Assembly (NCBI GenBank): GCA_963814875.1
Contig: CAWFFJ010000026.1
Coordinates: 82,184-146,183 of the forward strand
Length of the DNA: 64,000 nucleotides
Direction of reading: 5' to 3'
Origin: an uncultured Acidobacteriota bacterium
Lineage (GTDB): Bacteria > Acidobacteriota > Thermoanaerobaculia > Thermoanaerobaculales > Sulfomarinibacteraceae
In this document: piece after piece, positions 4,229 to 61,222 of the stretch
How positions within the stretch are numbered: position 1 is the first letter of the stretch
Layout of the letters: each line of letters opens with the position of its first letter
The notes under the pieces: model-generated
Told to the model about the DNA's origin: nothing
Database searches by the model: none
The model's input: only the letters and a program-made list of their open reading frames with translations
Program-made: the position numbers and the translations under genes

Positions 4229-4234
4229 TAGAAT
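4229..4234 (+). promoter_or_regulatory. Candidate -10 box (TAGAAT) for the M16 peptidase gene
   Basis: TAGAAT lies 18 nt upstream of ATG 4253. A G-rich Shine-Dalgarno (GGGGGGAG) sits between them. Confidence 0.35.
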
Positions 4235-4252
4235 GGCGCTCCCGGGGGGAGC

Positions 4253-6859
4253 ATGGCCCACGACTTCGAGCTCACCGACAGTGTCGACTCCGTTCGCGAG
4301 TGGCGTCATCGTGCCAATCGGCTGCGGGTACTGGTGTCCCCGACACCGGTGGCGCCCGTGGTCAGCTTCGGCGTCGTCTACGCCGTCGGCTCACGCCACG
4401 AGGGCGCCGGCCACACCGGCGCCACTCACCTCCTCGAGCACCTCATGTTCAAGGGGACGGAGCGCTTCAACCGCGACCGCGGGACCGAGATCGCGCGCGT
4501 CCTGCAGCGGGTCGGCGCGGCGTTCAACGCCACCACCTGGCTCGACCGGACCAACTACTACGAGACCGTGCCGATCGAGCACCTCGAGCTCGCGATCGAC
4601 ATCGAGGCCGACCGGATGCGCGGCGCGAGGGTCCGTCCCGAGGACCTCGAGAGCGAGCGCACGGTTGTCCTCAACGAGCTCGAGCGCGGCGAGAACGAGC
4701 CCTTCGACGTGCTCATGAAGGCCTCCTTCGCGCATGCCTTCCTCGAGCACCCCTACCATCACCCGACTATCGGGTGGCGCTCGGACGTCGAGAGCATCAG
4801 CGCCGAGGTCCTGCGCCGCTTCTACGACACCTACTACCACCCGGACAACGCCACCGTCATCGTCACCGGTGAGATCGACGAGGCGGCCGCGCTGGAGCAG
4901 GTGGAACGCCGTTTCGGTGCGATTCCCCCGGCTCCGGCTCCGGTGCCCGAGGTGCGCGCCCGCGAGGGCGTTCAGCGCGGCGAGCGCCGGTTCGTCCTCC
5001 ACCGGGCGGCGGAGGTCGGCGCCCTGGCGATGACCTGGCACATTCCGGCGGGGCTCCACCCCGACCTGCCCGCGCTGTCGGTGCTCAGCCAGGTGCTCTC
5101 CGAGGGCGTCACCTCGCGGCTCTACCAGCGCCTGGTCGAGACCAACCGCTGCCTCGGCGTGCACGCGTTCCCGATGGAGCTGCACGACCCGGGCGCGGTG
5201 CTCGTGTTCGCGACCCTCGCGCCGGGCGTACCCCACGCCGAGATCGAGGCGGTCCTGCGGGAGGAGATCACCGCGCTGGCGCACGTTCGTCCGCAGGAGG
5301 ACGAGATGGCGCGGGCCAAGATCCAGGTCCGCACCGACCTCGCGTTCCACCGCGAGTCGCCGGCGCAGATTCTCGCCGGCCTCACGGAGGCGGTGGCGAT
5401 GGGTGACTGGAGGAGGTTCCTGGGCGAGCTGGAGGCGGTCTCGGCGGTCACCGCAGACGACGTCTCCCGGGTTGCCGCCGAGCACCTCCACGAGCGCAAC
5501 CTGACCGTCGGATGGCTGGTGCCCGAGGACGGCAACGGCACGATGGCAGCCGATCCCGACCCGGGGCCGCGGCCGTGCTTCTTGAGCCGGCCCCTGGCCG
5601 ATCGGGTTGCGCTCAAGGACCTGCCGAGCGGCGGTCGGGTGGCGGTGCTGTCGAACCCGCACGCTCCCACGGTGACCATCGCCGGCAGTTTACGGGCGGG
5701 CCGGGCGATGGTCGAGGACCAACGGTTCGGCGTCGCAGGGTTAACGGCGGCGATGCTCGACCGCGGCACGGCGCACCACGACCGGCTCTCCTTCGCCCGC
5801 GAGATCGAGGACCACGGTCTACAGCTCGGGGTCGACACCTCCGGCAGCCTGCCGACCGTGGTGACGCTGTCGGTCCAGGGGCTCGCAGAGGAGCTTCCCC
5901 GGATGGCCGGCCTGCTGGCAGAGGTGCTGCGCGAGCCGTCCTTTGCCGCCGACCAGCTCGAGATCCTGCGCGAGCAGATCCTCGGCAGCCTCGCTCGCGA
6001 GCGCGAGGACACGTTTTCTCAGGGCTTCGCCGCCCTGACCCGTCTGCTCTACCCGGCGGGTCACCCGCACCATCGGCGATGCGTTGCGGCGCGCCGCGAG
6101 GAGGTGCTCGGCATCGCGCGTGAGGACCTGGTCGCCTTCCACGCCCGCGCCTACTCGCCGGCGTCGCTGATGCTGGCGGTGGTGGGGGCGGTCGAGGCCG
6201 GCGAGGTTCACGAGCTCCTGGGGGCGGCGTTCGACGGCTGGCTGGTCCCTGCCCCGTCGATCCCGAGCTGGCCGCCGGTCGGCGCGCCCAGCGGAGCGGG
6301 AGAACTGGTGCGGATCGCCGACCGTCCCAACCTCGACGCCTTCCTCGGTCGTGCCGGGAGCCTGCGGCGCGGCGATCCGGACCATCCGGCGGCGATCGTC
6401 GCCAACTCTTGCCTCGGCCAGTCCACCCTCACGTCGCGGCTCGGGGCGGAGGTCCGTGACCGGGCGGGGCTGACCTACGGGATCTACAGTCGCTTCTTCG
6501 GCACCCTCGAGCTGGCCGGGCCGTGGTCGGTCTTTCTCAGCGTGTCGCCGGACAGTCTCGACCGTGCAGTCGAGCTGTGCCGGGAGGTGATCACGCGCTA
6601 CTGGAGCGAAGGCCCGGCCGTCGACGAGCTCGAGGACGAGCGTCAGGCCTTGGCGGGGAGCTACCGCGTGTCGCTCGCGACCAACGCCGGCGTCGCCCGC
6701 GAGCTGGTCACGATGCTCACCGCCGGAGAGTCGGTCGAGAGCGTCGACCGCTACCCGGACGAGCTGCTCGCAGTCAGTCGAGAGCAGGTGATGGAGGCGA
6801 TTCGCACGCACCTGCACCCGGACGGACTTGTGGTCACAGCCGCCGGGAGCGTGCCGTAG
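4253..6859 (+). CDS. M16 (pitrilysin/insulinase) family zinc peptidase with fused active and inactive halves
   Basis: 868 aa with the inverted zinc motif HxxEH in GATHLLEHLMFKGTERF. A second M16-like half follows (about residue 450 onward). Confidence 0.9.
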   Translation: MAHDFELTDSVDSVREWRHRANRLRVLVSPTPVAPVVSFGVVYAVGSRHEGAGHTGATHLLEHLMFKGTERFNRDRGTEIARVLQRVGAAFNATTWLDRTNYYETVPIEHLELAIDIEADRMRGARVRPEDLESERTVVLNELERGENEPFDVLMKASFAHAFLEHPYHHPTIGWRSDVESISAEVLRRFYDTYYHPDNATVIVTGEIDEAAALEQVERRFGAIPPAPAPVPEVRAREGVQRGERRFVLHRAAEVGALAMTWHIPAGLHPDLPALSVLSQVLSEGVTSRLYQRLVETNRCLGVHAFPMELHDPGAVLVFATLAPGVPHAEIEAVLREEITALAHVRPQEDEMARAKIQVRTDLAFHRESPAQILAGLTEAVAMGDWRRFLGELEAVSAVTADDVSRVAAEHLHERNLTVGWLVPEDGNGTMAADPDPGPRPCFLSRPLADRVALKDLPSGGRVAVLSNPHAPTVTIAGSLRAGRAMVEDQRFGVAGLTAAMLDRGTAHHDRLSFAREIEDHGLQLGVDTSGSLPTVVTLSVQGLAEELPRMAGLLAEVLREPSFAADQLEILREQILGSLAREREDTFSQGFAALTRLLYPAGHPHHRRCVAARREEVLGIAREDLVAFHARAYSPASLMLAVVGAVEAGEVHELLGAAFDGWLVPAPSIPSWPPVGAPSGAGELVRIADRPNLDAFLGRAGSLRRGDPDHPAAIVANSCLGQSTLTSRLGAEVRDRAGLTYGIYSRFFGTLELAGPWSVFLSVSPDSLDRAVELCREVITRYWSEGPAVDELEDERQALAGSYRVSLATNAGVARELVTMLTAGESVESVDRYPDELLAVSREQVMEAIRTHLHPDGLVVTAAGSVP

Positions 6860-6867
6860 TAGCGCGA

Positions 6868-6924
6868 ACCGCGCAGCCCCTTGGCAGGCGTCCCTGTCGG
6901 GCAAGCGGGCGGAGGGGCTGCGCG
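6868..6924. terminator. Long-loop hairpin between convergent genes. A second 8-bp hairpin lies at 6938-6956.
   Basis: Perfect 12-bp stem CCGCGCAGCCCC (6868-6879) pairs with GGGGCTGCGCGG (6913-6924). GGATTCGC (6938-6945) pairs with GCGAATCC (6949-6956). There is no strong U-tract. Confidence 0.3.
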
Positions 6925-6981
6925 GCACGCGCTGCTTTGGATTCGCTGCGCGAATCCCGGTCAATGTCCTCGGCACGGGGC

Positions 6982-7056
6982 CTAGAAGCCCGTCGCGAGG
7001 TCGCCGCTTCCGAGGTGGGCGTCGATCCGGTACGGACCGATCTGTGTCCCGAGCAT
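6982..7056 (-). pseudogene. 24-codon mini-ORF resembling the N-terminus of a Ser/Thr kinase. It may be a gene relic or a small leaderless ORF.
   Basis: MLGTQIGPYRIDAHLGSGDLATGF then stop. IGxYRIxxxLGxG is the usual start of Hanks kinases and the Gly-rich loop (compare IGRYEIVRTLGRGAMG in the kinase at 7922-9868). No kinase-like sequence follows in any frame. Confidence 0.25.
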
Positions 7057-7063
7057 GCCGTTG

Positions 7064-7069
7064 ATTCTA
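7064..7069 (-). promoter_or_regulatory. Candidate -10 box (TAGAAT) placed 7 nt before the mini-ORF ATG 7056
   Basis: The minus strand reads GGCTAGAAT-caacggc-ATG. It lies 5 nt downstream of the MBL gene stop. Confidence 0.3.
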
Positions 7070-7073
7070 GCCG

Positions 7074-9868: not shown

Positions 9869-9874
9869 GGGCCT

Positions 9875-9880
9875 ATTCTA
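9875..9880 (-). promoter_or_regulatory. Candidate -10 box (TAGAAT) 6 nt before the kinase GTG start, in a leaderless arrangement
   Basis: The minus strand reads CGGTAGAAT-aggccc-GTG(9868). There is no Shine-Dalgarno sequence. Confidence 0.4.
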
Positions 9881-9984
9881 CCGGGAGACCGCCTGTTCTC
9901 TCCGCCGATGCCGTTCTGGCGGCGCGGGGCCGATTCGACGCGGCAAGCCCGCGGCTGGGTTGGTCGCCAGGCGGGCGCGATCCT

Positions 9985-9993
9985 TGCTAGATG
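9985..9993 (+). promoter_or_regulatory. Candidate extended -10 promoter (TGcTAGATG) of the moxR/bat operon
   Basis: TTGCTAGATG lies in the divergent intergenic region, 31 nt upstream of ATG 10025, with GGGGGAGG as the Shine-Dalgarno. Confidence 0.35.
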
Positions 9994-10024
9994 TCACCCA
10001 GGCCAACTGGCCGTTGGGGGAGGC

Positions 10025-17236: not shown

Positions 17237-17242
17237 TACAGT
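17234..17242 (+). promoter_or_regulatory. Candidate extended -10 (TGaTACAGT) 6 nt before ATG 17249, in a leaderless arrangement
   Basis: Reads TGATACAGT-gagctg-ATG. It overlaps the batD stop codon, and there is no Shine-Dalgarno. Confidence 0.35.
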
Positions 17243-18403: not shown

Positions 18404-18524
18404 TCTCTCTTCGTGAGCTCATTCATTTACCGGGATGGAAATCTGGCAGGCGAATTGCTGTTGAAGGAAGTGCTCGGTCCGGGCCGCTGCGCGGCTGACG
18501 GGCCGCTGCCTCGGAGGTTTCCCA

Positions 18525-20495: not shown

Positions 20496-20501
20496 ATTCT
20501 A
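20496..20501 (-). promoter_or_regulatory. Candidate -10 box (TAGAAT) for the DUF3467 gene
   Basis: The minus strand reads GATAGAAT, 18 nt upstream of ATG 20477, with GGAGG in between. Confidence 0.35.
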
Positions 20502-20621: not shown

Positions 20622-21383
20622 ATGGGGCTCTATGCTAGAGTACGCGCCGTGTCGAAGTCGCGCTTGCCCCAGCTGTTGCTCGGCCTTTTCGTGCTCGCGC
20701 AAGGCGTTGCCTGGTCTGCCGACGCGACGGTTCCGGCCCCATCACAGGCCGTCGACGCACTCGAGGGCGGCGACAAGCTGCGCGCGTTGATCAACGCCGT
20801 GGTCGAGGCTCAGCGTGCTCTCACTTCGATGCGAGCCGACTTCGCTCAGACCAAGCGCAGCGAGCTCCTGCTCCAGCCCGTGACTTCACGCGGCGATTTC
20901 CTGTTCCGGGCACCCGACTCTGTCCGATGGGACTATGTTGAGCCGGACGCGATGGTGGTCCTGTTCGTGGACGGAGAGCTCACGACCTACCACCCGGACC
21001 TCCGCACCGCGCAGCGGATCACGACATCGCGGCGCCAGCGGAGGCTGCTCAACGTGCTCGCCGGGACGCAGCCGCTCGACGAGCTCACGACCCACTTCGC
21101 GGTCTCCCTCGCGGACCCGGGAGCGCCGAAACCGTACCGGTTGACGTTGACCGCGACCGACCGCCTGCTCAAGCGCAAGCTCTCCTCGGTGGTCCTCGAC
21201 ATCGACCGTACGCTGATGCTCCCAGTCGTGGTCGAGTACCACGAGGCCGACGGGGACTCGACCCGTTACGAGTTCTCGCACATCGTGCTCAACCCGCCGC
21301 TGGACGACGCCGCCTTCCGCCTCGCGCTCGAACCGGACGTGAAGGTCGAAACGGTCAACGCGTCGTCCGCCGCGGGCGAGTGA
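20622..21383 (+). CDS. LolA-like outer-membrane lipoprotein carrier family protein
   Basis: Signal peptide SKSRLPQLLLGLFVLAQGVAWSA, then LTSMRADFAQTKRSELLLQPVTSRGDFLFRAPDSVRWDY, which fits the LolA fold family. The start is ambiguous: ATG 20622, or GTG 20649, which the promoter geometry favours. Confidence 0.75.
   Translation: MGLYARVRAVSKSRLPQLLLGLFVLAQGVAWSADATVPAPSQAVDALEGGDKLRALINAVVEAQRALTSMRADFAQTKRSELLLQPVTSRGDFLFRAPDSVRWDYVEPDAMVVLFVDGELTTYHPDLRTAQRITTSRRQRRLLNVLAGTQPLDELTTHFAVSLADPGAPKPYRLTLTATDRLLKRKLSSVVLDIDRTLMLPVVVEYHEADGDSTRYEFSHIVLNPPLDDAAFRLALEPDVKVETVNASSAAGE
20633..20641 (+). promoter_or_regulatory. Candidate extended -10 (TGcTAGAGT) 7 nt before GTG 20649
   Basis: Reads TGCTAGAGT-acgcgcc-GTG. 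This would make the lolA-like/tgt/yajC/secDF transcript leaderless if GTG 20649 is the start. Confidence 0.3.
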
Positions 21384-25654: not shown

Positions 25655-25672
25655 TTGCTTGACCGCGCCCAG

Positions 25673-25678
25673 TAGAAT
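25673..25678 (+). promoter_or_regulatory. Candidate -10 box (TAGAAT) 3 or 6 nt before the tandem ATGs of relA
   Basis: Reads CAGTAGAAT-gaa-ATG-ATG. There is no Shine-Dalgarno, so the arrangement is leaderless. Confidence 0.4.
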
Positions 25679-25681
25679 GAA

Positions 25682-27883
25682 ATGATGAGCGGCGCGGTGA
25701 AGGTCCGCTTCGAGGACATCCTCAACTCCGTCGAGTCCTACCGGCACGACATGAATGAGGATCTGCTTCGCCACGCCTACGTCTTCGCCGCCAACCGCCA
25801 CCAGGGACAGGTCCGGCGTTCGGGCGAGGCGTACATGGTGCACCCGCTGGCCGTGGCCCTGAGTCTCGCCGAGATGGAGCTCGACGAGGTCGCCATCGCC
25901 GCTGGGCTGCTCCACGACATCCTCGAGGACACAGCCTGCACCGTCGACGAGCTGGCGGTCGAGTTCGGACCGGAGGTGACGCGGCTGGTCGTTGCCCTGA
26001 CCAAGATCTCCGGCTATGAGTCCAGCTTCTCGAGCCGCGAAGCGACCGAGGCGGAGAACTTCCGTCGCCTGCTGCTGGCCTCGATGGACGACGTGCGGGT
26101 GATCTTGATCAAGCTTGCCGACCGGCTCCACAACATGCGAACGCTCGAGTTCCTGCGCCGCGAGCGTCAGGTCTCGATCGCACGCGAGACACTCGAGATC
26201 TATGCGCCGATCGCCAACCGGCTCGGTATCGGTGCGATCAAGGGCGAGCTCGAGGATCTCTGTTTCCGCTATCTCCACCCCAAGGAGGCCGAGCGCCTCG
26301 AGCAGGAGGTGGAGGGCCGCGCGAACGCCGCTCAGCGCTGGTTCACCGAGATCCGAACCGAGATCGAGCAGATGCTCGCGGAGCACGGTATCCACCCGAT
26401 GGTGAAGGGCCGGGTCAAGCACCTGTACTCGATCTTCCTCAAGCTGCGCCAGCAGGGAATCGACGTCTCGAATGTGTTCGACTTTCTTGCCTTCCGTGTG
26501 ATCGTCGACACCGTCGCAGAGTGCTACGCGACCCTGGGGCTGATCCACCAGAAGTGGTCGCCGCTTCCTGGTCGGATCAAGGACCACATCGCAATTCCAA
26601 AGCCGAACGCGTACCAGTCATTGCACACCACGGTAATCGGGCCTGAGGGGCATCCGTTCGAGATCCAGATCCGCACCTGGGACATGCACAAGATCGCGGA
26701 GTTCGGGATCGCCGCGCACTGGAACTACAAGGAGAAGGGCTCGGGCACGATCTCGAACGACTCGCGCATCTCGTGGCTGCGCAGCCTGATGACCGACATC
26801 GAGGGGTCGACGCCGCGCGAGTTTCTCGACTCGCTCAAAGTCGATCTCTACCCCGACGAGGTCTACTGCTTCACACCGAGGGGCGACGTCTTCTCATTTC
26901 CGCGCGGTTCGACGATTCTCGATTTTGCCTATCGTGTCCACACCGAGGTCGGCCACCATTGCGTCGGCGGCCGGATTAACGGCCGGTGGGTACCGATCAA
27001 GACCGAGCTCACCAACGGCGACATCATCGAGATCACGACCTCACCCCAGCAGAACCCTCACCACGACTGGCTCAACCACGTCGTCACCAACCGCGCGCGG
27101 TCGAAGATCCGCGCCTGGCTCAAGCGCGAGGAGAAGGCGCGCGCGGTCGAGGTCGGGCGCAAGCTGCTCGAGCGCGAGCTGCGAAAGGGAGGCGTCGGGC
27201 TCCGCAAGGCGACGAGCGCCGAAGCCCTGCAGAAGGTCCTCACCACCCACGGTCTCGCCGCCGAGGAGGACATGCTGGCGGCGATTGGCTTCGGCCGCCT
27301 GGCGGCGTCCACGATCGCCGCCGAGCTGTGCCTTGAAGAGGCGCCGGCCGGCGGTGTCGAATCGGGCATTCCGCGCAGCGAACGGGTCGTGCCGCTTGGA
27401 CGCGAGCCGGCTGTGCTCGAGGTCACCGGTGACGCCGACTTCCTGGTCTACGTGGCCAAGTGCTGCAGTCCGTTGCCGGGCGAGGAGATTGTGGGCTTCG
27501 TCACACGAGGCAAGGGGGTCGCGGTCCACTCCCGCCAGTGTCCGAACGTGAAGAACCTGCTCTACCACCCGGAGCGGGAGATCGAGGTCCGGTGGGCGTC
27601 GTCCGCCGGCAGCGCGCGGTCGCAGGCGACCCGGGTCGACCTCGACATGGTGTTCGAGGACCAGCCTGGGATGCTCGCGGCGATCTCCCACCAGATCTCG
27701 TCGGAAGGGTGCAACATCCTCAGCGGGCAGCTGCGCACGGACGGCGACCACACCGGATTCGCCGCCATGACGATCGCGGTGCGAGACGCAGCCCAGCTCA
27801 ATCGGGTGCTGGAGAAACTGTTGGAGCTGAACGGGATGCAGCAGGTCGAGAGGCGAGGAGCCCCTACGCGAGCGCGGGCTTGA
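25682..27883 (+). CDS. relA: Bifunctional (p)ppGpp synthetase/hydrolase (RelA/SpoT homologue)
   Basis: 733 aa. Has the HD hydrolase motif (MVHPLAVA...LHDILEDT), a synthetase domain, TGS (YCFTPRGDVFSFPRGST) and a C-terminal ACT-like domain. Confidence 0.92.
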   Translation: MMSGAVKVRFEDILNSVESYRHDMNEDLLRHAYVFAANRHQGQVRRSGEAYMVHPLAVALSLAEMELDEVAIAAGLLHDILEDTACTVDELAVEFGPEVTRLVVALTKISGYESSFSSREATEAENFRRLLLASMDDVRVILIKLADRLHNMRTLEFLRRERQVSIARETLEIYAPIANRLGIGAIKGELEDLCFRYLHPKEAERLEQEVEGRANAAQRWFTEIRTEIEQMLAEHGIHPMVKGRVKHLYSIFLKLRQQGIDVSNVFDFLAFRVIVDTVAECYATLGLIHQKWSPLPGRIKDHIAIPKPNAYQSLHTTVIGPEGHPFEIQIRTWDMHKIAEFGIAAHWNYKEKGSGTISNDSRISWLRSLMTDIEGSTPREFLDSLKVDLYPDEVYCFTPRGDVFSFPRGSTILDFAYRVHTEVGHHCVGGRINGRWVPIKTELTNGDIIEITTSPQQNPHHDWLNHVVTNRARSKIRAWLKREEKARAVEVGRKLLERELRKGGVGLRKATSAEALQKVLTTHGLAAEEDMLAAIGFGRLAASTIAAELCLEEAPAGGVESGIPRSERVVPLGREPAVLEVTGDADFLVYVAKCCSPLPGEEIVGFVTRGKGVAVHSRQCPNVKNLLYHPEREIEVRWASSAGSARSQATRVDLDMVFEDQPGMLAAISHQISSEGCNILSGQLRTDGDHTGFAAMTIAVRDAAQLNRVLEKLLELNGMQQVERRGAPTRARA

Positions 27884-28177: not shown

Positions 28178-28207
28178 TTGACAGTTCGCCTCGCCGTTTG
28201 CTAGCCT
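28178..28207 (+). promoter_or_regulatory. Candidate promoter of the pil operon
   Basis: TTGACA (28178-28183), 18-nt spacer, TAGCCT preceded by TGc (TGCTAGCCT 28199-28207). It lies about 60 nt upstream of GTG 28266. Confidence 0.35.
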
Positions 28208-31056: not shown

Positions 31057-31078
31057 CGTGAGGGTGAAGGAAGTTCGG

Positions 31079-33570
31079 ATGAAAGTGGGGGATGGCATGA
31101 TGATCAAGAACGCCCGCATCCTGGTCGTAGCGGCGGCTTCCTTCGTGCTGCTGGGATCTGGCATCGCGGACGCGGCCACGAGCGCCGTTCCCGTTCTCGA
31201 GGGCTTGGCCACCGAGTCCGGGCCCGACGGGCCGGTGATCCGACTGCGGACGAGCGGCGACCTCGATACCGTGCACTACAGCCCGCAGCCCGGCGTGTGG
31301 ATCGTGGAGATGCCCGAGGCGACGTGGGCCGAGGCAGCGGGAGTGGTCAGCGACCCGGCCATAGGTCTCGATCGCGCGGAGCTCGCCCATGTTGAGGAGT
31401 TTGGCAAGCGGGTGACCCGCCTCACGGTCTGGCTGGCCGAACCGGCCCAGCTCGACGTCGAGCGAGCGGCGGATGGTCTCGAGCTCCGCTTCCAGCCCCT
31501 GCAGGGCCCGCGGGCGGTGGTGCCGCCTAAGGTTGAGAATGACGGCGTAGAGGTCGCGTCGGCACGTGCGCCTGCGGAACCCGCAGCAGACGAGATCGTT
31601 CCCAGTGAGCGTCCGGCACTGCCTCCCGTAGTGATCGCCTCTGCCGATCAACCGGCGCCCGCCGATTCCAGGACCACCAGCGCCGCCTCCGGAGAGAGCC
31701 TCCTCGAGGTCCTCCCCGTCGCGGTCGGCGACGGCGTCCGGATCGAGCTTCGAGCCGACGGCGAGCTCGTCGGTCAGGCATTCACGCTGCCGGAGCCCGA
31801 CCGGATCGTGGTCGACCTGCCGGGGGTCGTCAACCGGGTCTCCCAGAGTGTGGTCTCGGTTGCCTCGCCTCTGGTCCGCCGAGTGCGCGTGGCCCAGTTC
31901 CGCTCTGCTCCCAACCCGGTGACTCGGGTGGTGATCGATCTCACGAGCAAGGCCGCCCACCAGCTCGTCGAAACGCCCAACGGGGCGGTTCTCATCGTTG
32001 GCGACGCCACCTCTTCCGGAGCTGGCGCCGTCGCTGTGGCGGCCGCGAGCGGCGACACCGCCGTTCGGAAGGGTGCCGGGACCATCGAGATGCACCGCTC
32101 GGCTCCGGTGGAGCCGGATCCGGCAGTCGCCGATCCGGCGACCGCCGCCCAGCCTGCAGGCCTGCCTGCCGAGCTGTTTGAGGTGCCCGAGCGCCAGGCC
32201 GCGGCCCCTGAGGCTCCGGCGCCCGACCGCAACCCGTTCGTCGCCGACCCTTCGCAGCTGATCGAATCGGCGACTCCGGGGAGGGTGCTCGATCTCCCCA
32301 CGACCACGGCGGAAACCTACAGCAGCACTGAAGTTGCCAGCCAGGAGCAGCAGTTCACCGGGGAGCCGATCACGCTCACGCTGAAGGACGCTGACATCGC
32401 CGATGTGCTCAAGACCTTCTCTGCGCTGACCAACCTCAACATCGTTCTCGACCCGGGTGTGCGCGGCTCGGTCACGGTCGAGCTGCACGACGTGCCCTGG
32501 GACCAGGCGCTCGACCTCATCCTCAAGATCAACAATCTCGACTATGTCCTCGAGAACAACGTCCTGCGCGTCGCCCCGACCAGCAAGCTTGCCAAAGAGA
32601 AGGCCGACGCGGTGAACTTCCTCAAGCAGCAGGAGTCGGCGCGACCGCTGAAGACGGTCATCAAGCCGGTCTCCTATGCCAAGGCCCAGGACATCAAACA
32701 GATCCTCACCCAGGACTCGACCCTGCTGTCCGACCGCGGCACGGTCACCATCGACGCGCGGACCAACACGCTCATCCTTCGCGACACCGTGGACCGCGTC
32801 GAAGGCGTGCTGCGACTCGTCGACATCCTCGACCAGCCGACACCGCAGGTGGTCATCGAGGGCCGGATCGTCGAGACGACCCGTGACTTTTCCTACAGCC
32901 TCGGCGTCAACTGGGGGTTCAGCGGAGTCAAGGACGCCGCCCACGGCAACGACACCGGGCTCGACTTCCCGAACAGCGCCACCGCCGACGGCAGGGTGGG
33001 GCTCGAGACCGCGGGCAACGGCACCCTGTCCTTGACCTTCGGCGACATCCTCAACACCTTCAACCTCGACTTCCTGCTCTCGGCGGCGGAGTCGGACGGC
33101 GTTGTCAAGATCGTCTCCACGCCGCGGGTGACCACCCAGAACCTGCAGCGTGCATCGATCCGCTCGGGCCTTCAGCTCCCGGTCCAGACGGTCGCCAACA
33201 ACACCGTCACCGTGCAGTACGTCGACGCGACGCTGCGCCTCGACGTGCTGCCCCAGATCACGGCCGAGGGCACCGTGATGCTGGACATCAACATCCGCAA
33301 GCAGGAGGCTCGCAGGCCCTCGGAGCAGCGGTGGCAGGCGGGAACAACGTCCCGATCTTCACCCGCGACGCCCAGACGTCGCTGCTGGTGCGGGACGGCG
33401 GCACCACGGTCATCGCCGGGATCTACCAGATCAACGATCAGAACTCCCAGGACCGAGTCCCAGGACTGTGGAAGGTTCCGATTCTCGGGCATCTCTTCAA
33501 GAACAAGACAGTCTTCAATCGGCACGACGAGCTGCTGATCTTCATCACCCCGAGAATCGTCAAGTATTAG
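31079..33570 (+). pseudogene. pilQ: Type IV pilus secretin PilQ, interrupted by one apparent 1-nt frame change near 33300-33330. This is either a genuine disruption or a sequence error.
   Basis: Has a signal peptide, two AMIN-like segments (RIVVDLPGVV...TRVVIDLT), secretin N domains, and VVIEGRIVETTRDFSYSLGVNWGF. Homology in frame 2 stops after DINIRKQEA. The secretin C-terminus GGNNVPIFTRDAQTSLLVRDGGTTVIAGI...ELLIFITPRIVKY is in frame 1 (ORF 33331-33570). Confidence 0.85.
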
Positions 33571-37885: not shown

Positions 37886-37912
37886 CGCCCCGGCCCTTCA
37901 AGGGCCGGGGCG
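37886..37912 (+). terminator. Hairpin terminator after the large lipoprotein gene
   Basis: CGCCCCGGCCC-TTCAA-GGGCCGGGGCG is a perfect 11-bp stem, followed by the pyrimidine/T-containing TCCTCATCTCT. Confidence 0.55.
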
Positions 37913-37924
37913 TCCTCATCTCTG

Positions 37925-39352
37925 ATGGACGAACGCATCGCCGAACTTCGTGCCGAGCTGCGGGAGGATCCGACCTCCCGCCTGTTCTATCAGCTCGGTG
38001 AGCTGCTGCGCCGCGAGGAGGCGCATGAGGAGGCGGTGCGCGTGCTGCGCGGCGGCCTCGAGCACAACCCGCGCTACGTCGCCGCCTGGGTCGCGCTCGG
38101 GCGCTCGCTGGCCGCGCTCGAGCGCCACGAGGAGGCCGAGAAGGCCGGCGCGAGGGCCCTCGAGCTCGACCCCGAGAACGCGGTCGCCGCGCGGATGATC
38201 GGCGAGAGTGCAGCCGCCCGCGGTGACCTCGTGCGCGCGATCAAGGGGCTCAAGCTCGCCCGCGTGCTCTCGCCGCGCGACCAGGACCTCGAGGACCGCA
38301 TTGCCGAGGTCGAGGCCGGGCTGGCCAAGCGCGGTCTGCTCGAGGCCCCGGCCCACCGGCATGAGCACTCGGGACCCGTGCCCCGGCTCGGGGCGGATCT
38401 CAGGCCGGGCCCCGGCGGACTGACGACGGTTTCCGTCCGTCGCCTCGAGCTGCCGCCGCTCGAGATGGCCCAGGTCGGGGACGGCGATCCGTTCCTCCTC
38501 GGGCGTACCGGCGACAGCGGGATCTGGCTGCTCGGCGACGACGTCTTCGAGGCGCCCGAGCCGGAACCGGAGCCCGAGGCATTCGGTCCGTCGGACGAGC
38601 CCGTCGAGCCGGACGTGGTCGATCTGCCGGACTGGGAGATTGGCGAGGCGCCGGCCGCCGCCAAGCGGTTCGAGAGTCCGTCCGCAGTCGACGAGCCCCC
38701 GCCAGACTGGGAGGTTGACGACTTCGAACAGCCCGAAGTGCCGATCCCCGACGAGACCGGTGGCTGGGAGGTCGCGACCCCGGTGGCGTGGGCAACGGCT
38801 CCAGAGGCAACCTGGCGACCACAGGAGGTCGTCGGTGAGCTCGAAGCGGCCGGGGAGACTGTCTTCCCAGGAGCCGACCAGCGTGATCTCTCCGGCGAGC
38901 CGGAGCTTCTCGAGGCCGGGCTGGAAACCGCATCGGAGCTTGTCGAGGTTGAGAGCGCCCAGGGCCGCTACGAGGTCGATCCCGGACACGAACTGGAGTC
39001 GGAGTCCGAGCCGCTGTCGGAGAGTGACGAGGAGGAGTGGTCCGAGTTCGAGGAGATCCCTCTGCCGACGTTGACCCTCGCCCGCTTGGCCTACGAGCAG
39101 GGCGATCTTCGGCTCGCGGAGCGCACGTTGCTCGGGGTGCTCGAACGCCAACCGCACTCTGCGGAGGCTCGCGCCCTGCTGGAGCAGATCCGCAGCGAGC
39201 GTTCGCCGGTCCCCACGACGGCTCCCGCGACGGATGAGGCTGCCGCCGCCGCTGAGGCGCAGGAGGTGGCGAGCCCTGCGATCGCGAAGATCGCTGCGTT
39301 GCGTGCGTGGGCGGACACGATTAGACTGGCTGCGGAGCAGCGGCACCCGTGA
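37925..39352 (+). CDS. TPR-repeat protein with a long acidic Pro/Glu/Asp-rich central region
   Basis: Has N-terminal TPRs (AVRVLRGGLEHNPRYVAAWVALGRSLAALERHEEAEKAGARALELDPEN). The acidic middle carries PDWE repeats. A C-terminal TPR is present (LARLAYEQGDLRLAERTLLGVLERQPHSAEA). There is no obvious Shine-Dalgarno. Confidence 0.8.
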   Translation: MDERIAELRAELREDPTSRLFYQLGELLRREEAHEEAVRVLRGGLEHNPRYVAAWVALGRSLAALERHEEAEKAGARALELDPENAVAARMIGESAAARGDLVRAIKGLKLARVLSPRDQDLEDRIAEVEAGLAKRGLLEAPAHRHEHSGPVPRLGADLRPGPGGLTTVSVRRLELPPLEMAQVGDGDPFLLGRTGDSGIWLLGDDVFEAPEPEPEPEAFGPSDEPVEPDVVDLPDWEIGEAPAAAKRFESPSAVDEPPPDWEVDDFEQPEVPIPDETGGWEVATPVAWATAPEATWRPQEVVGELEAAGETVFPGADQRDLSGEPELLEAGLETASELVEVESAQGRYEVDPGHELESESEPLSESDEEEWSEFEEIPLPTLTLARLAYEQGDLRLAERTLLGVLERQPHSAEARALLEQIRSERSPVPTTAPATDEAAAAAEAQEVASPAIAKIAALRAWADTIRLAAEQRHP

Positions 39353-41604: not shown

Positions 41605-41613
41605 TGCTACCAT
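41605..41613 (+). promoter_or_regulatory. Candidate extended -10 (TGcTACCAT) 7 nt before ATG 41621
   Basis: Reads TGCTACCAT-gaggggg-ATG. It lies in the 46-nt accC-aroK spacer. Confidence 0.3.
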
Positions 41614-46538: not shown

Positions 46539-46547
46539 TGCTAGAAT
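46539..46547 (+). promoter_or_regulatory. Candidate extended -10 (TGcTAGAAT) 6 nt before ATG 46554, in a leaderless arrangement
   Basis: Reads TTTGCTAGAAT-ctgcac-ATG. There is no Shine-Dalgarno. Confidence 0.4.
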
Positions 46548-48888: not shown

Positions 48889-50115
48889 TCAGCCGGGCGG
48901 CGCAGGTCGGACGTGGAGTCGGGTGACGCGTCCCCCGTCGATCTCGCGAACCTCGAGCGCCAGACCTTCCCAGTGCACGACGTCGCCGACGGCGACCTCA
49001 GTCTCGACCAGCGAGCCGACGAGGCCCCCCACGGAGTCGATGTCCTCGGGTGGCGGCAGCCTGCGGTGGAGGATGCGCTCCAGCCGGCGCAGGGCGAGGT
49101 AGCCGGGCACGAGCCAGCCGTTCCCCTCAGCCACCACGGTCGTGCCGAGCTCGCGGTCGAACTCGTCCTCGATCTCCCCGAAGACCAGCTCGAGGATGTC
49201 CTCCATGCAGACGATGCCCGAGGAGCCGCCAAACTCGTCGAGCACGATGGCCAGGTGCTGGCCGCCGTGTCGCATGTCCTGGAGCAGGTCCGGGAGCGGC
49301 TTGGACTCGGGGATCAAGATCGGGTCAACGACGGTATCGGTCCAGCGGCTCCCAGGGGCGAGCCGGAGCAGATGTCGGGCGTGCAGTACGCCGACGATGC
49401 GGTCCGGCGAACCGTCCACGACCGGGAACCGGCTGTGCGGAGACTGCCCGACCACCGCGCGCAGCCTGGCGTCATCCCACGAAGAATCGACGGTCTCGAC
49501 TCGTGGCCTTGGGACCATGATCTGGCGTGCCGTCGCCTGCTGGAAGCGCAGCACCGACTCGATCACATGGCGCGCCTCGCGCGGCAGCTGGGCGTGCCGG
49601 TGGGCCAATCGGAGCATGAAGAGGAGATCCTCCTCGGTCACCGGCACCTCCTGCGGGGTGCGGGGCGACAGCGCCCGGGCGAGCAGTCCAAGCACCGCGT
49701 TGACCGGGCGCAGCACGACGTCGAGCAGGTACAGAACCGGAGCGACCCGGGCGACGACCCACTGTGCGTGGCGCTGGGCCAGGGTTTTCGGTGTGATCTC
49801 GCCGAAGACCAGGATGAACAGGGTGATGACGCCGACCGCAACGGCGACCGCCGAGCTCTGCACCAACTGATAGGCGAGAGTGGTGGCGAGGGAGGACGCG
49901 AGCACGTTGACCAGGTTGTTGCCGACCAGGATCGTGATCAGCAGCTCCTGGGGCGCGTGCGCCCACCGGTCGAGAGCGGCCCGGGTGAGCCGACCACTCT
50001 TCTCGCGCAACGCCTCCCGACGGGTGACAGGAAGCGACGTGAGTGCGGTCTCCGAGGCAGAGAAGAATGCCGAGCCGGCAAGGCAGAGGACGACCGCTAC
50101 GAGCTCAGCGTTCAT
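48889..50115 (-). CDS. CNNM/HlyC-CorC family transporter (DUF21 + CBS pair + CorC_HlyC)
   Basis: Contains MNAELVAVVLCLAGSAFFSASETALTSL, a CBS region and the C-terminal CorC domain. ATG 50115 was chosen over the longer formal ORF (50163). Confidence 0.88.
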   Translation of the reverse strand: MNAELVAVVLCLAGSAFFSASETALTSLPVTRREALREKSGRLTRAALDRWAHAPQELLITILVGNNLVNVLASSLATTLAYQLVQSSAVAVAVGVITLFILVFGEITPKTLAQRHAQWVVARVAPVLYLLDVVLRPVNAVLGLLARALSPRTPQEVPVTEEDLLFMLRLAHRHAQLPREARHVIESVLRFQQATARQIMVPRPRVETVDSSWDDARLRAVVGQSPHSRFPVVDGSPDRIVGVLHARHLLRLAPGSRWTDTVVDPILIPESKPLPDLLQDMRHGGQHLAIVLDEFGGSSGIVCMEDILELVFGEIEDEFDRELGTTVVAEGNGWLVPGYLALRRLERILHRRLPPPEDIDSVGGLVGSLVETEVAVGDVVHWEGLALEVREIDGGRVTRLHVRPAPPG

Positions 50116-50258
50116 GGCGTCCGGGTTCGGGGTCGGGATCCTCCATCGCGGCCATGCTACCACGGGACCGGGACCCGACCCGCCGTGCTATCCTGGCCGC
50201 GCTTTTCAACCTGACAGCGACAGGACGGTGTGACCGTCGACGAACAAGGAGGCGGGTT

Positions 50259-51014: not shown

Positions 51015-51024
51015 GCGACCACCA

Positions 51025-52089: not shown

Positions 52090-52186
52090 CTCGGGACCTC
52101 CCGCCCGCGGTCGCGGGCCGTTCATTGTAACGCTGCTGGCCGGCGGCCCCTGTTGGCCGGCGTACAATTCCGGGCGAGGAGGAGCC

Positions 52187-53121: not shown

Positions 53122-53131
53122 TGCCTGTCCG

Positions 53132-56190: not shown

Positions 56191-57046
56191 CGACCCGACT
56201 CCAACAGCCGTTGCGCAACCGCCAGGAACTGGACAACCGCGGCAACGTCGTGTACCCGGACCACGGCTCGCTCGAGGCCGAGGCTCGGCAGGAGGGCGGC
56301 GAGAGTGCCCGGGATTCTCTCCGTGGTGGGCGCCCCGGTGATCCGACCGATGAACGACTTGCGCGAGGGCCCGACGACGACGGGATGGCCGAGTGCCGCG
56401 AGGTCGGGCAGCGCCGCGAGGAGGGCAAGGTTGCCGTCAAGGTCCTTGCCGAAACCGATGCCCGGGTCGAGCCAGATCCGCTCCGGGGAGATCCCGGCAG
56501 CGAGTGCGTCGGCAGCCCGGCCGGCCAGCTCGCCGTGAACCTCGGCGACGACGTCGCGGTAGTGCGTGTCGCGCTGCATGGTGCGCGGGTTGCCTCGCAT
56601 GTGCATGAGCACGATTGCGGCCCCTGCCGCCGCAACCGTGGGCAGCATCGCGGGATCCGAGGCGGCCGTCACGTCATTGACGAGATCGGCGCCGGCGGCG
56701 AGGGCGGCGCCGGCGACATCCGCCTTGGAGGTATCGACCGAAATCGTGAGCTCGGGGTGCCGGGAGCGAAGCGCCGCAATCACCGGTTGTACGCGAGCGG
56801 TCTCGACCTCGGCCGGTACGTCCTTGGCCCCGGGCCGCGTCGACTCGCCTCCGACGTCGAGAAGGTCGGCGCCGGCCGCCACCAGGACGTCGCCGTACGC
56901 AACGGCAGCGTCCGCAGCAAGATAGGGCCCGCCGTCGGAGAACGAGTCGGGTGTGCAGTTGACGATGCCCATGACGGCCGGCCGACGTCGTCGCCAGATC
57001 GCCGCGAGGCGGTCGGCCCGGACAGCAGCCGGAGAGGGACAGGTGC

Positions 57047-57050
<4 letters not shown>
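56187..57050 (-). CDS. folP: Dihydropteroate synthase
   Basis: Contains [16 protein letters not shown] and [11 protein letters not shown]. Confidence 0.92.
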
Positions 57051-58939
<1,889 letters not shown>

Positions 58940-59024
58940 GCCCTGTGTCCCTTCTGGGACCGCCAACCCCTGGCGCCCCTCGGCAAAACCCCAATGCAGG
59001 AGGGGTTGTTCCCCGGCCGGTGCG

Positions 59025-59549
59025 TTACGGAGCCTCTTCGAGAACGCATAGGTCGGGGCGGTTCGCGAACTGATTCCGACTGATGCCCAGGCCGTACCCG
59101 ACGAGGAACCCCTCGGGGACCTGAGTGAACAGTGCGTAGCGCGCAATCAGGTTCACGCTGCGCAGCTGGGGCTTGTCGACCAGCGCGAGAACCTCGATCG
59201 ACGCCGGGCGCTGCTGGCTGAGGTGAGTGATGAGGTAGTTTTCTGTGACACCCGAATGGAGGACATCCTTGAGAATCAGGACGTGTCGGTCCTTGACGTT
59301 GAAGTTGGTGGCGTAGGTCAGCAGGACGACCTCTCCACGTTCGCCGACTGTCGTCGTGACATCGACGAACTCGAAGTCGATCGGAATCTTCAAGGCACGG
59401 GCGAGATCGGGGAGCAGGAAGGCGATGCCTTTCAGGATTCCGACCAGTACCAACGGCGTGCCATGGTAGTCAGCCGCGATCTGCTCGGCTACTTCGGAGA
59501 CCCGGCGCCGGATCTCCTCCTCGGAGTGAACGACCCGCAGCCCGGTCAT
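59025..59549 (-). CDS. hpt: Hypoxanthine phosphoribosyltransferase
   Basis: Has the PRPP motif [13 protein letters not shown] and the usual tilS-hpt-ftsH order. GGAGGTGG lies upstream of ATG 59549. Confidence 0.9.
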
Positions 59550-60847
59550 GTGCAGTCCACCTCCATGGGAAACGTGCCGGGGCCGAGACGGCTCACGGCA
59601 GCCCATACTCCTGGAATCCAGGTAATTCTAGCATCCACGACGACCACGGGCCATGCGCCGCGCAGATGTCGGGGCAGCGCCTCCGCCATTCTCCGTCTGG
59701 CCGCAACCGGACCCTTCGATGTCTCGAGCACGTCATCCGGTCGGGGAGAGCGAACCAGTACTCTTTCGGTCGCGGGGAGTAGCGTGTGCCAGGCACTTGC
59801 GCCGGTGCAGCCAGTGCCGAGGCGGGCTTCCAGGCCGGGCACGGCGAGCGGAGCGCACTGGCCGGCGGTCAGCTCCTGACGCCATTCGGGCAAGGGGGCG
59901 GGAGGCTCCAGCCACACGCGGCCGCGGGCCAGGCGCAAGCGCCAGCGGCCGGCCAGAGCCAGCCCCCGCGGGGTTCCATTTTCGATCAACCCGTGGAGGA
60001 GCTCGATCTGGCGCCGGGTCACGGAGCCGATTCCCCACCGGAGCGCCTCGGCGTGGAGCCAGCGGGTCCGCAGTGCCCGCGGTGCGGCCGCGAGGTCGGC
60101 CGACGGCACGCCGCCCTGGGGGTGCCATGGGTCGAGCCGGCCGATCAAAGGCGCGGCGGCGGCGGCGAGGCAGGCGTCGTCCTCGGCCAGGGCCGCGGCG
60201 AGGGCGACCAGGTGATCGCGGACGCGTGGCGATGCGGCTTCGAGAGCCGGAAGGAGGTGGTGGCGCACCCGGTTGCGCGGATGGCGCAGGTCGCGGTTCG
60301 AGCTGTCCTCCCTCCAACTCAGCCCTTTCGCCTCGAGCCAGACAGTAATCTCGACGCGTCCCCACGGCAGCAGCGGGCGCACGATTCGGCCGTCTTGGCT
60401 GCGGGAAGCGATGCCGGCCAGGGCCCGCGGGCCCCCACCGCGGAGCAGCTGGACGAGAACGCCCTCGGCAACGTCATCGCGGTGGTGAGCAGTGGCCACC
60501 GCAGCCGCGCCGGTGCGCGACGCGAGCTCGAGCAGAGCCCGATAGCGCAGGCGCCGCCAACCGGCCTCACGTCCCTCGGCCGGGCTGCGCTCGGGCTCCA
60601 GGTGGACGACGTGAAAGCGCAACCCGAGATCATCGGCGAGCCTGCGGCAGAAGGCCTCGTCGCCGTCCGCCTCCGCACCGCGGGTGTGGTGGTGGACGTG
60701 AGCCACTTCGAGCTCGAACCCGGCGTCGGCCAGCAGGTGGAGCAGGGCGACCGAGTCCCGACCACCCGAGACGGCGACCATCAGCCGCCGCCCGACGAGG
60801 TCGGGAAACGCGCGCTCGATATGGCGGGGAAACCCGTCCAGAGACAT
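59546..60847 (-). CDS. tilS: tRNA(Ile)-lysidine synthetase
   Basis: Has the PP-loop VAVSGGRDSVALLHLL. The length is 433 aa. ATGA overlap with hpt. Confidence 0.9.
   Translation of the reverse strand: MSLDGFPRHIERAFPDLVGRRLMVAVSGGRDSVALLHLLADAGFELEVAHVHHHTRGAEADGDEAFCRRLADDLGLRFHVVHLEPERSPAEGREAGWRRLRYRALLELASRTGAAAVATAHHRDDVAEGVLVQLLRGGGPRALAGIASRSQDGRIVRPLLPWGRVEITVWLEAKGLSWREDSSNRDLRHPRNRVRHHLLPALEAASPRVRDHLVALAAALAEDDACLAAAAAPLIGRLDPWHPQGGVPSADLAAAPRALRTRWLHAEALRWGIGSVTRRQIELLHGLIENGTPRGLALAGRWRLRLARGRVWLEPPAPLPEWRQELTAGQCAPLAVPGLEARLGTGCTGASAWHTLLPATERVLVRSPRPDDVLETSKGPVAARRRMAEALPRHLRGAWPVVVVDARITWIPGVWAAVSRLGPGTFPMEVDCT
59625..59633 (-). promoter_or_regulatory. Candidate extended -10 (TGcTAGAAT) inside the tilS 3' end, serving hpt-ftsH
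   Basis: The minus strand reads GGATGCTAGAATTACC, about 75 nt upstream of ATG 59549. Confidence 0.35.
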
Positions 60848-60854
60848 CGGGGAG

Positions 60855-60929
60855 TGGTGGCGGTGGGTGGAATTGAACCACCGACACGGGGCTTATGAGA
60901 CCCCTGCTCTGCCGCTGAGCTACACCGCC
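60855..60929 (-). tRNA. tRNA with anticodon CAU, either elongator Met or the Ile2 lysidine substrate. CCA is encoded.
   Basis: The reverse complement is GGCGGTGTAGCTCAGCGGCAGAGCAGGGGTCTCATAAGCCCCGTGTCGGTGGTTCAATTCCACCCACCGCCACCA. It folds as a cloverleaf with a 7-bp acceptor stem, GTTCAAT T-loop and CTCATAA anticodon loop. The G1-C72 pair argues against an initiator. Confidence 0.88.
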
Positions 60930-60939
60930 GGGCCGCGGT

Positions 60940-60969
60940 ACTTTAACGCCGGGGTACGCGCCACGTCAA
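60940..60969 (-). promoter_or_regulatory. Candidate sigma70-type promoter of the tRNA(CAU)-tilS unit
   Basis: On the minus strand: TTGACG (60969-60964), 18-nt spacer, TAAAGT (60945-60940). It lies 10 nt upstream of the tRNA 5' end. Confidence 0.45.
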
Positions 60970-61002
60970 GGTGCTCCCGGCGGGGCGTGAGCGTCATCGC
61001 GG

Positions 61003-61008
61003 TATACT
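61003..61008 (+). promoter_or_regulatory. Candidate -10 box (TATACT) 7 nt before ATG 61016, in a leaderless arrangement
   Basis: Reads GGTATACT-ggcgtgc-ATG. There is no Shine-Dalgarno. Confidence 0.35.
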
Positions 61009-61015
61009 GGCGTGC

Positions 61016-61222
61016 ATGGCCGAGACGGAGCCTGAGGAGATTACAGCGTGCGGCAGGTGCGGTGTGGCGGTGTCGGAAGACTCGTTGCAAGCCTGCGCGA
61101 TCTGTCGTAGGCTATGCTGCCAACGTTGCGTCGTGGCTGGGTACGGTAGGATTTTCTGTTCAGTGAGTTGTCGCAACGTTTTCTTTTTCGGTGACGACGA
61201 TCTCGAGGACGTGGAGCCCTAG
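61016..61222 (+). CDS. Small (68-aa) Cys-rich, zinc-ribbon-like protein
   Basis: The sequence is MAETEPEEITACGRCGVAVSEDSLQACAICRRLCCQRCVVAGYGRIFCSVSCRNVFFFGDDDLEDVEP. It has nine Cys, including CxxC pairs. The local GC content is lower than its surroundings. Confidence 0.55.
   Translation: MAETEPEEITACGRCGVAVSEDSLQACAICRRLCCQRCVVAGYGRIFCSVSCRNVFFFGDDDLEDVEP

Follow-up and report, generated by a model that had tools for sequence, protein, structure and literature searches.

An uncultured Thermoanaerobaculia (Acidobacteriota) bacterium is the source of the 64-kb window analysed here, a stretch of about 69% GC in which seven genes and one upstream open reading frame (ORF) carry a hexamer of the form TANNNT that ends 6-7 nt before the start codon. 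The genes encode a Ser/Thr kinase, a GAF-GGDEF protein, a LolA-like protein, RelA/SpoT, AroK, a GT2 glycosyltransferase and a 68-amino acid Cys-rich protein; the upstream ORF overlaps the start of corC. A sequence-only reading of the same DNA had proposed that such hexamers are -10 promoter boxes placed directly against start codons, and that the genome mixes leaderless mRNAs with mRNAs led by a Shine-Dalgarno (SD) site.

The gene map was based on frame analysis of GC content at third codon positions, Pfam scans of competing ORFs, ARAGORN and the gene calls of syntenic relatives, and 40 start codons were curated from Pfam hits and alignments. On this curated map, 4.5% of the annotated window is non-coding. 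The sole match in an Rfam scan was a tRNA. Since synteny is kept, we could compare upstream regions across the whole window, using relatives at 58-94% protein identity. RelA of the nearest metagenome-assembled genome is 94% identical to that of the window, and twelve or so further genomes, whose labels read Thermoanaerobaculia, Thermoanaerobaculales or Holophagae, have a RelA that is 70-74% identical. Exact-match searches with the RelA protein, from either candidate start, had no hit on record. Contigs nearly identical to the window occur in sediment samples of the JGI Ga0315540 / Ga0315535 series. The comparison sets were L001-L012 and L040 for the relA region; L102, L103 and L112 for the GT2 region; L104-L108 for the Cys-rich ORF; L109-L111 for the kinase region; and L058-L065 for the mrp region.

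Results

TANNNT hexamers are concentrated at a set distance before start codons

Seven exact copies of TAGAAT are present in the window, at the positions and on the strands that the sequence-only reading had listed: 4229(+), 7069(-), 9880(-), 20501(-), 25673(+), 46542(+) and 59630(-). The expected number is 2.04, and one of 100 dinucleotide shuffles of the 64-kb window reaches seven. When coding and intergenic copies were counted separately, as had been suggested, six of the seven fell in non-coding sequence (binomial P = 5 × 10⁻⁸), as did eight of the ten sites matching TANAAT (P = 6 × 10⁻¹⁰). The stronger statement that all seven copies lie just upstream of a start codon holds for three (9880, 25673 and 46542). 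The copies at 4229 and 20501 are each 18 nt 5′ of an ATG with an SD site, and those at 59630 and 7069, discussed below, drop out as well.

A TANNNT hexamer ends 6-7 nt before seven of the 40 curated starts, compared to 13 of 3248 other ATG or GTG codons (0.4%; binomial P = 2.7 × 10⁻¹⁰). Plotting the distance from hexamer to start for the curated starts gave peaks only at 6-7 nt (seven genes) and 18 nt (three genes), and start-agnostic distance histograms in the relatives likewise peak at 6-7 nt. The eight short distances given by the sequence-only reading proved to be 6-7 nt each; the 3 nt at the lower end of its range applies only to an upstream relA ATG, at 25682. Other hits at 6-7 nt in the window, excluding a relic at 7056 and the corC upstream ORF (see below), have weak hexamers and are nearly all antisense within coding sequence. 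At the putative leaderless start positions, only ATG or GTG is used, both in the window and in the relatives. We also considered a fixed short-leader class at 18 nt and rejected it, as the distance is not kept in relatives (18-35 nt for the DUF3467 gene, 9-29 nt for the M16 peptidase gene and 17-40 nt for the hydrolase gene) and its hpt member was a wrong start.

The tetranucleotide CTAG had been described as rare. With 11 copies observed and 75 expected, it is about 7-fold under-represented across the window. Six of the 11 copies fall in conserved upstream elements: four in putative sigma-70 -10 regions that stand before a gene, one in the relic (7067) and one in a sigma-54-type element (9987). 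Three further copies overlap stop codons. The longer string TGCTAGA occurs at all four sites claimed for it (9985, 20633, 46539 and 59633 on the reverse strand). As a distinct motif it did not hold up: 1.56 copies are expected, and nine of 100 shuffles reach four.

The hexamer is conserved in register with conserved start codons

Depending on the gene, the arrangement of TANNNT and start codon is kept in 3-14 genomes, while the spacer sequence and the upstream DNA diverge. The placement is non-random, and the motif is conserved in register with start codons that are themselves conserved.

The broadest comparison was available for relA/spoT, where TAGAAT (25673-25678, forward strand) lies 6 nt before ATG 25685. 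The pattern TA[CGA]AAT-6-ATG is present in all 14 genomes, the six spacer bases vary freely, and N-terminal length is conserved. Of the two starts that had been offered, 25685 is the one that aligns across genomes; the alignment gives no support to 25682. This promoter contains a second conserved element, CTTGACC (25658-25664, forward strand), 7-8 bp 5′ of the -10 box, which every one of the 14 relA promoters carries and which occurs at no other promoter among the loci examined. A reading of TTGACC as a -35 element at 17 bp is ruled out by the real spacer to the -10 box of 7-8 bp, and an alternative pairing, TTGACC-16-AATGAT, is not conserved, since relatives do not have an A at position 2. 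CTTGACC may be an operator-like element inside a leaderless promoter.

The GAF-GGDEF gene has TACAGT (17237-17242, forward strand) 6 nt before ATG 17249, adjoining the batD stop codon. In 11 genomes we found TA[CG]A[CGT]T-6-ATG/GTG, with the N-terminus conserved from residue 1. The box is kept whether the end of batD adjoins it, as in the window, or sits hundreds of bases away.

On the reverse strand, TAGAAT (9875-9880) lies 6 nt before GTG 9868, the start of a Ser/Thr kinase gene that heads a kinase-MBL hydrolase operon. Since the TAG of this TAGAAT is an in-frame stop codon and the Pkinase domain begins at residue 9, GTG 9868 is the only possible start. The box is kept in four genomes, with TAGAAT 6 nt from a GTG in the window and L109 and from an ATG in L110, and with TACAAT 7 nt from an ATG in L111. 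The start codon thus alternates between GTG and ATG among orthologues.

For the lolA-like gene, the first of lolA-tgt-secDF, an extended -10 sequence, TGcTAGAGT (20633-20641, forward strand), lies 7 nt before GTG 20649. All six genomes that have the gene carry tgTGCTAGAGT-7-GTG. In two genomes that lack it, tgt has a TAGAAT of its own 5 nt before its conserved ATG.

Two further genes belong to the GT2 region. The putative aroK promoter, TGcTACCAT (41605-41613, forward strand), is of the extended type and lies 7 nt before ATG 41621; the gap between TACCAT and the start is 7 nt in the window, L102 and L112 and 8 nt in L103. The GT2 glycosyltransferase gene, which heads a GT2-PMT_2 operon, has the extended sequence TGcTAGAAT (46539-46547, forward strand) 6 nt before ATG 46554. 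TAGAAT-6-ATG is kept in L102 (89% identity) and L103 (72%), and the spacers and N-termini have diverged. L115 and L116 were tried as GT2 comparators and set aside as distant homologues in a different gene context, uninformative on this promoter.

Finally, TATACT (61003-61008, forward strand) lies 7 nt before ATG 61016 of the Cys-rich ORF (61016-61222), whose homologues are exactly 68 amino acids long and 79-87% identical. The sequence TATACTggcgtgcATG is identical in L104 and L108, making three genomes with the window, and the DNA further upstream has diverged. As divergence is low, this footprint is weaker evidence than the others.

Taken as a whole, the footprints of these seven genes in 3-14 genomes lend unusually strong support to the proposal that sigma-70-type -10 elements stand at start codons and that leaderless genes occur here alongside SD-led ones.

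The same box precedes a tRNA gene and SD-led genes

In all 15 promoters of the window and all their orthologous copies, T1, A2 and T6 of the hexamer are invariant and positions 3-5 vary. Of the 15 window promoters, 13 have a G at -14. Some boxes carry an upstream TGn, as had been noted, and the G at -14 is a commoner shared feature than the full TGn. Its frequency suggests that these are extended -10 type promoters, independent of a -35 element. Only the promoters of the tRNA gene, pilM and rpmB have a TTGACA-like -35 at 17 ± 1 bp.

The promoter of the tRNA(CAT) gene (60929-60855, reverse strand) reads TTGACG-18-TAAAGT (60940-60969, reverse strand), with TAAAGT 10 nt 5′ of the gene. That of pilM reads TTGACA-18-(TGc)TAGCCT (28178-28207, forward strand) and would give a leader of roughly 50 nt; here TTGCTAGCCTGC is conserved in 14 genomes. 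The TTGCTAGCC element 5′ of pilM was tried as a sigma-54 site and discarded, as TTGACA-18-TGcTAGCCT is the better fit.

Several protein-coding genes combine the box with an SD site further downstream. The M16 peptidase gene has TAGAAT (4229-4234, forward strand) 18 nt before ATG 4253, the SD site GGGGGGAG and a predicted leader of about 12 nt. The DUF3467 gene has TAGAAT (20496-20501, reverse strand) 18 nt before ATG 20477 and a GGAGG site; TA[GC]AAT and GGAGG are both kept in relatives, and leader length varies from 18 to 35 nt. An alpha/beta hydrolase gene has TACAAT (52163-52168, forward strand) 18 nt before ATG 52187 with the SD site GAGGAGG, and in relatives the hexamer is kept with leaders of 17-40 nt. 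For mrp/apbC, TACAAT (52124-52129, reverse strand) stands 34 nt before ATG 52089, and the leader contains a hairpin and the SD site GGGAGG.

Overall, GGAGG sites precede htrA, the DUF3467 gene, rpmB, mrp, the hydrolase gene, the M16 peptidase gene, hpt (59549), pilN and pilP. The classical sites that the sequence-only reading had placed alongside leaderless genes are there before htrA, the DUF3467 gene, pilN, pilP and, once its start is corrected, hpt. The box is absent before internal operon genes, where GGAGG or a stop/start overlap is used. The presence of the same box before a tRNA gene with a canonical -35 and, at 18-40 nt, before SD-led genes marks it as a promoter element rather than a signal for translation.

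The mode of initiation switches among orthologues. The M16 peptidase gene has the TAGAAT-18 plus SD layout in the window and L109, TAGAAT 9 nt from the ATG with no SD site in L110, and TATCAT about 29 nt away in L111. For tgt, stop/start coupling alternates with an apparently leaderless TAGAAT-5 arrangement (L002/L005). A TPR gene (ATG 37925; region 37887-37927, forward strand) begins 13 nt after a strong terminator hairpin, and neither an SD site nor a -10 box was found upstream of it in the window, L102, L103 or L112. In L009, L010 and L012, TATAGT or TATAAT stands 6-8 nt ahead of the ATG of its orthologue.

Leaderless transcription is the probable explanation of the arrangement

We conclude, with a probability of roughly 85%, that the TANNNT hexamers are housekeeping sigma-70-type -10 elements abutting start codons, and that the mRNAs of these genes are leaderless and mixed with those of SD-led genes. 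The consensus would be about G-n-TA[GC]AAT, usually without a -35 element, and would be read by RNA polymerase carrying a sigma-70-type factor. RNA polymerase initiates 7-8 nt downstream of the -10 element. With the hexamer at -12 to -7, transcription would begin on the first base of the start codon where the gap is 6 nt, and on that base or 1 nt earlier where it is 7 nt, so that a spacing of 6-7 nt predicts a transcript that begins at the start codon or 1 nt before it. Such a spacer also leaves no room for a functional SD site. The transcript would have neither a 5′ untranslated region nor an SD sequence, and the ribosome would bind the 5′-terminal AUG or GUG directly, a mode of translation demonstrated by experiment in mycobacteria and Deinococcus. 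A hexamer ends 6-7 nt before an ATG or GTG in about 8 of the about 20 transcription units of the window (about 40%). The remaining units would use the same box at 18-40 nt together with GGAGG, or sigma-54-type promoters, and operon-internal genes would rely on SD sites or stop/start overlap.

Several points weigh against this conclusion. Most of the promoters have no recognisable -35, the leaderless ones scoring at most 3/6, and in relA the conserved TTGACC, at 7-8 bp from the -10 box, does not have the spacing of one. The spacing argument presumes the usual 7-8 nt from -10 to +1, and the gene starts to which it is applied were predicted from Pfam hits and alignments. Individual genes add to these doubts. 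The aroK spacer is G-rich (gaggggg or gaggagg) and could serve as a very close SD site; the GT2 promoter is not kept in L112 (67% identity); and the Cys-rich ORF is supported by close relatives alone. Co-directional genes precede the GGDEF gene by 12 nt and aroK by 46 nt, and read-through transcripts with internal GGDEF and aroK starts are likely to coexist with leaderless ones. A literature search returned no study of transcription start sites in Thermoanaerobaculia and no experimental report of leaderless mRNAs for Acidobacteria.

The closeness of these two genes to their upstream neighbours also fits an alternative that we consider unlikely, in which the boxes are real -10 elements and the genes are expressed mainly from leadered transcripts, through upstream promoters, read-through or starts further downstream, with the abutting promoter secondary or unproductive. 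The TAGAAT-18-ATG arrangement at hpt shows that such a pairing can deceive, since the true start is 57 nt further downstream, and the gene callers applied to relatives picked other starts for the kinase gene (L111) and aroK (L112). However, those alternative starts lie inside the -10 hexamer and break the N-terminal alignment. Moreover, relA, the kinase gene, the lolA-like gene, the GT2 gene and the Cys-rich ORF have no SD site and lie behind divergent or convergent genes or long spacers, and a 6-7 nt spacer that stays fixed across 58-94% identity would be unexplained if the position of the transcription start were immaterial.

Less probable still, and by our estimate very improbable, is that the hexamer acts in the mRNA, as a non-SD ribosome-binding site or an unstructured "standby" site of the kind seen in Bacteroidota-type genomes, within a leadered transcript and without being a promoter. 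An AT-rich patch before the start would reduce local structure in a 69% GC genome, and non-SD motifs are known from genomes of GeneMarkS-2 group B (PMC6028130). This does not account for the sigma-70 signature of the box (T1, A2 and T6 invariant, a variable middle and G at -14), for its presence before a tRNA gene with a canonical -35 and 18-40 nt before genes with a GGAGG of their own, or for its absence before internal operon genes. Chance, or an artefact of ORF definition by which TAG, as a stop codon, automatically brings the next start codon near, could draw on the in-frame TAG that bounds the kinase ORF and on the lack of significant enrichment of TGCTAGA alone, but it is effectively refuted by the P values for non-coding placement (5 × 10⁻⁸) and start spacing (2.7 × 10⁻¹⁰), by hexamers without TAG that act alike (TACAAT, TACAGT, TACCAT and TATACT) and by an arrangement kept in up to 14 genomes.

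A putative leaderless ORF overlaps the corC start

The eighth unit with the 6-7 nt spacing lies on the reverse strand upstream of corC, which encodes a CNNM/CorC protein. Here TAGCAT (50154-50159), preceded by TGg, stands 7 nt before the ATG of a 13-codon, Pro-rich upstream ORF (50105-50146, encoding MEDPDPEPGRHER and a stop codon) that overlaps the corC start codon, ATG 50115. The true corC start is this ATG (MNAELVAV...) and not GTG 50163, and it has no SD site. The window shares the pattern TGgTA[GC][CG]AT-7-ATG with L102, L103 and L112. In all four genomes, the upstream ORF has 13 codons, encoding MEDPDPEPGRHER twice, MDDPPGRPRWTLT and MDDPAPWNGADER, and always overlaps the corC ATG. The peptide is conserved only in its first four residues (M-[E/D]-D-P) and its length. 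In L103, corC is 5 nt nearer and the ORF still has 13 codons, because a different stop codon is used.

From this layout, corC translation looks coupled to the leaderless upstream ORF. A further step, which we offer tentatively and regard as rather doubtful, is that leaderless initiation is also regulatory here, with corC expression dependent on translation of the mini-ORF through termination-reinitiation or pausing sensitive to proline or Mg2+. If true, the corC mini-ORF would represent a novel kind of leader-peptide control, in a lineage of uncultured acidobacteria. Folding of the corC leaders of the four genomes revealed no shared structure, alternative stem-loops or terminator.

Some sites are better assigned to other elements

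Two of the hexamers that had been taken for promoters of adjacent genes required reassignment, and a third precedes a mini-ORF that is not a conserved gene. TGcTAGAAT (59625-59633, reverse strand) had been placed just upstream of a start codon. It lies inside the coding region at the 3′ end of tilS, about 75 nt 5′ of ATG 59549, as both the relatives and the substitution pattern indicate. ATG 59549 has the SD site GGAGGTG, overlaps the tilS stop codon and is the hpt start, and relatives call a 174-amino acid Hpt. The stretch from 59606 to 59550 evolves in the tilS frame, and ATG 59606, 18 nt 3′ of the TAGAAT, is not the start of hpt. At most, the TAGAAT at 59630 may act from within tilS as a promoter for hpt-ftsH, which would give these genes a leader of about 70 nt.

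Similarly, the TGCTAGA at 9985, upstream of moxR (ATG 10025), had been read as part of a -10 box. The hexamer TAGATG lacks the invariant final T, and across four genomes the would-be -10 reads TAGATG, TAAGAG, TATCTT or is absent. What is conserved is a sigma-54-type -24/-12 element that spans the site (GGGCGCgatccTTGCT, 9973-9988, forward strand), with GG-N10-GC in all four genomes, GGGCGC-N5-TTGCT in three and GGCAT-N5-TTGCC in L111 (GGCATgaaatTTGCC). The TGCTAGA at 9985 would fit better as a part of this element. Downstream lies the moxR-DUF58-batABCD operon.

A second conserved sigma-54-type promoter is predicted for htrA (ATG 18525, with a GGAGG site) at 18444-18459 on the forward strand (TGGCAGgcgaaTTGCT), where TGGCA[CG]-N5-TTGCT is present in nine genomes. 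The sigma-54-type pattern is enriched in the window, with 6 copies against 1.5 expected. Neither rpoN nor a cognate enhancer-binding protein gene lies within the 64 kb.

The third site is the TAGAAT at 7064-7069 (reverse strand), which does stand 7 nt before ATG 7056, the start of a 24-codon mini-ORF (7056-6982), as the sequence-only reading had it. The mini-ORF is not a conserved gene, and the corresponding spacers between MBL and M16 genes in L109, L110 and L111 lack the whole element. The N-terminus of the encoded peptide resembles that of a Ser/Thr kinase (MLGTQIGPYRIDAHLGSG...), and the mini-ORF is best read as a lineage-specific relic of the 5′ end of a leaderless kinase gene. The relic (6982-7069) sits between the convergent M16 peptidase and MBL genes and is followed by a bidirectional terminator hairpin.

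Gene calls and neighbouring genes

Automated calls in relatives placed the starts of the kinase gene (L111) and aroK (L112) inside the -10 hexamer, in the case of aroK at an ATG at the 3′ end of the hexamer. The moxR call in L109 is over-extended across the sigma-54-type element, and the calls of relatives miss the corC upstream ORF. Such start-calling errors are systematic and are expected in leaderless-rich genomes.

The tRNA(CAT) gene (60855-60929, reverse strand) ends 7 nt before the tilS ATG at 60847, with which it shares its promoter, and L104 and L105 have the same layout. Since its acceptor stem begins with a G1-C72 pair, this is not an initiator tRNA. A possible identity is tRNA-Ile2, in which case TilS would be co-transcribed with the tRNA that it modifies.

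In the pil cluster, pilQ (31058-33570, forward strand) is frameshifted near 33330, with the secretin C-terminus (containing NVPIFTRDAQTSLL and ending in LLIFITPRIVKY before the stop codon) in the other frame, ending at 33570. In L004, pilQ is a single intact ORF. The frameshift is either an assembly error or a pseudogene. A large Ig-domain gene beginning at GTG 33571 abuts the pilQ stop codon.

Discussion

The closest precedent is the "TA-led" class of Zheng et al. (2011; BMC Genomics 12:361, PMC3160421), in which leaderless genes are recognised by a TANNNT whose first T lies about 12 nt ahead of the start. That study predicted leaderless genes in three of three Acidobacteria, at 9.7-19.4% of genes. 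The window resembles the TA-led class in its 6-nt gap, high GC content, weakly informative middle three positions and mixture with SD-led genes, and in orthologues that switch between leadered and leaderless forms, here the M16 peptidase gene, tgt and the TPR gene. It differs in that the middle positions are more informative (TA[GC]AAT) and a G at -14 is prominent. The evidence also differs in kind, as ours is phylogenetic footprinting gene by gene, whereas theirs is genome-wide statistics. Their set comprised the three acidobacterial genomes available by 2011, and the portion of the article available to us mentions no Thermoanaerobaculia.

A second match is group C of GeneMarkS-2 (Lomsadze et al., 2018, PMC6028130), which comprises Actinobacteria and Deinococcus-Thermus. 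In this group, a Pribnow box lies 6-8 nt before the starts of genes that are first in their operons, 25-50% of operons are leaderless, and SD sites serve elsewhere (PMC6028130). About 8 of the about 20 units considered here fit, a proportion that refers to the 64-kb window only. As far as the main text of that article goes, Acidobacteria are not mentioned. The window has every sequence-level feature that marks TA-led or group C leaderless genes. Treating Thermoanaerobaculia as group C-like should give better start-codon calls and promoter prediction in a large uncultured lineage of soils and sediments.

Among experimentally characterised systems, the nearest are mycobacteria and Deinococcus. 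In mycobacteria, leaderless translation requires an ATG or GTG at the 5′ end and nothing more, and for 73% of leaderless genes the orthologues are leaderless too (Shell et al., 2015, PMC4633059). For Deinococcus deserti, the leaderless transcriptome has been mapped experimentally (de Groot et al., 2014, as cited in PMC6028130). The predicted leaderless genes share with both a 5′-terminal ATG or GTG, never TTG, and promoters without a -35 that rely on a TANNNT -10 element. They differ in phylum, as the Acidobacteriota are of Gram-negative type, and in being known here from sequence alone. To the bacteria in which leaderless mRNAs are common, our analysis adds a Gram-negative-type phylum with comparative support for each gene, and it includes orthologues that switch among leaderless, short-leader and coupled initiation.

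The corC upstream ORF has two counterparts. Leaderless short ORFs upstream of genes, some of them regulatory, are known in mycobacteria (PMC4633059; bioRxiv 10.1101/834739). In Salmonella, leader peptides with proline codons precede genes for Mg2+ transporters, as with mgtL and mgtA (PMC6460261). As in mgtL, a short Pro-containing ORF lies in the leader of a gene related to Mg2+ transport, here that of a CNNM/CorC protein. Unlike mgtL, the corC upstream ORF is predicted to be leaderless and overlaps the start codon of the gene that it precedes, and no shared fold was found. Seen against these systems, the window contains a known architecture in a new lineage and not a new mechanism. Leaderless genes had already been predicted computationally for Acidobacteria, and the current understanding of leaderless translation is unchanged.

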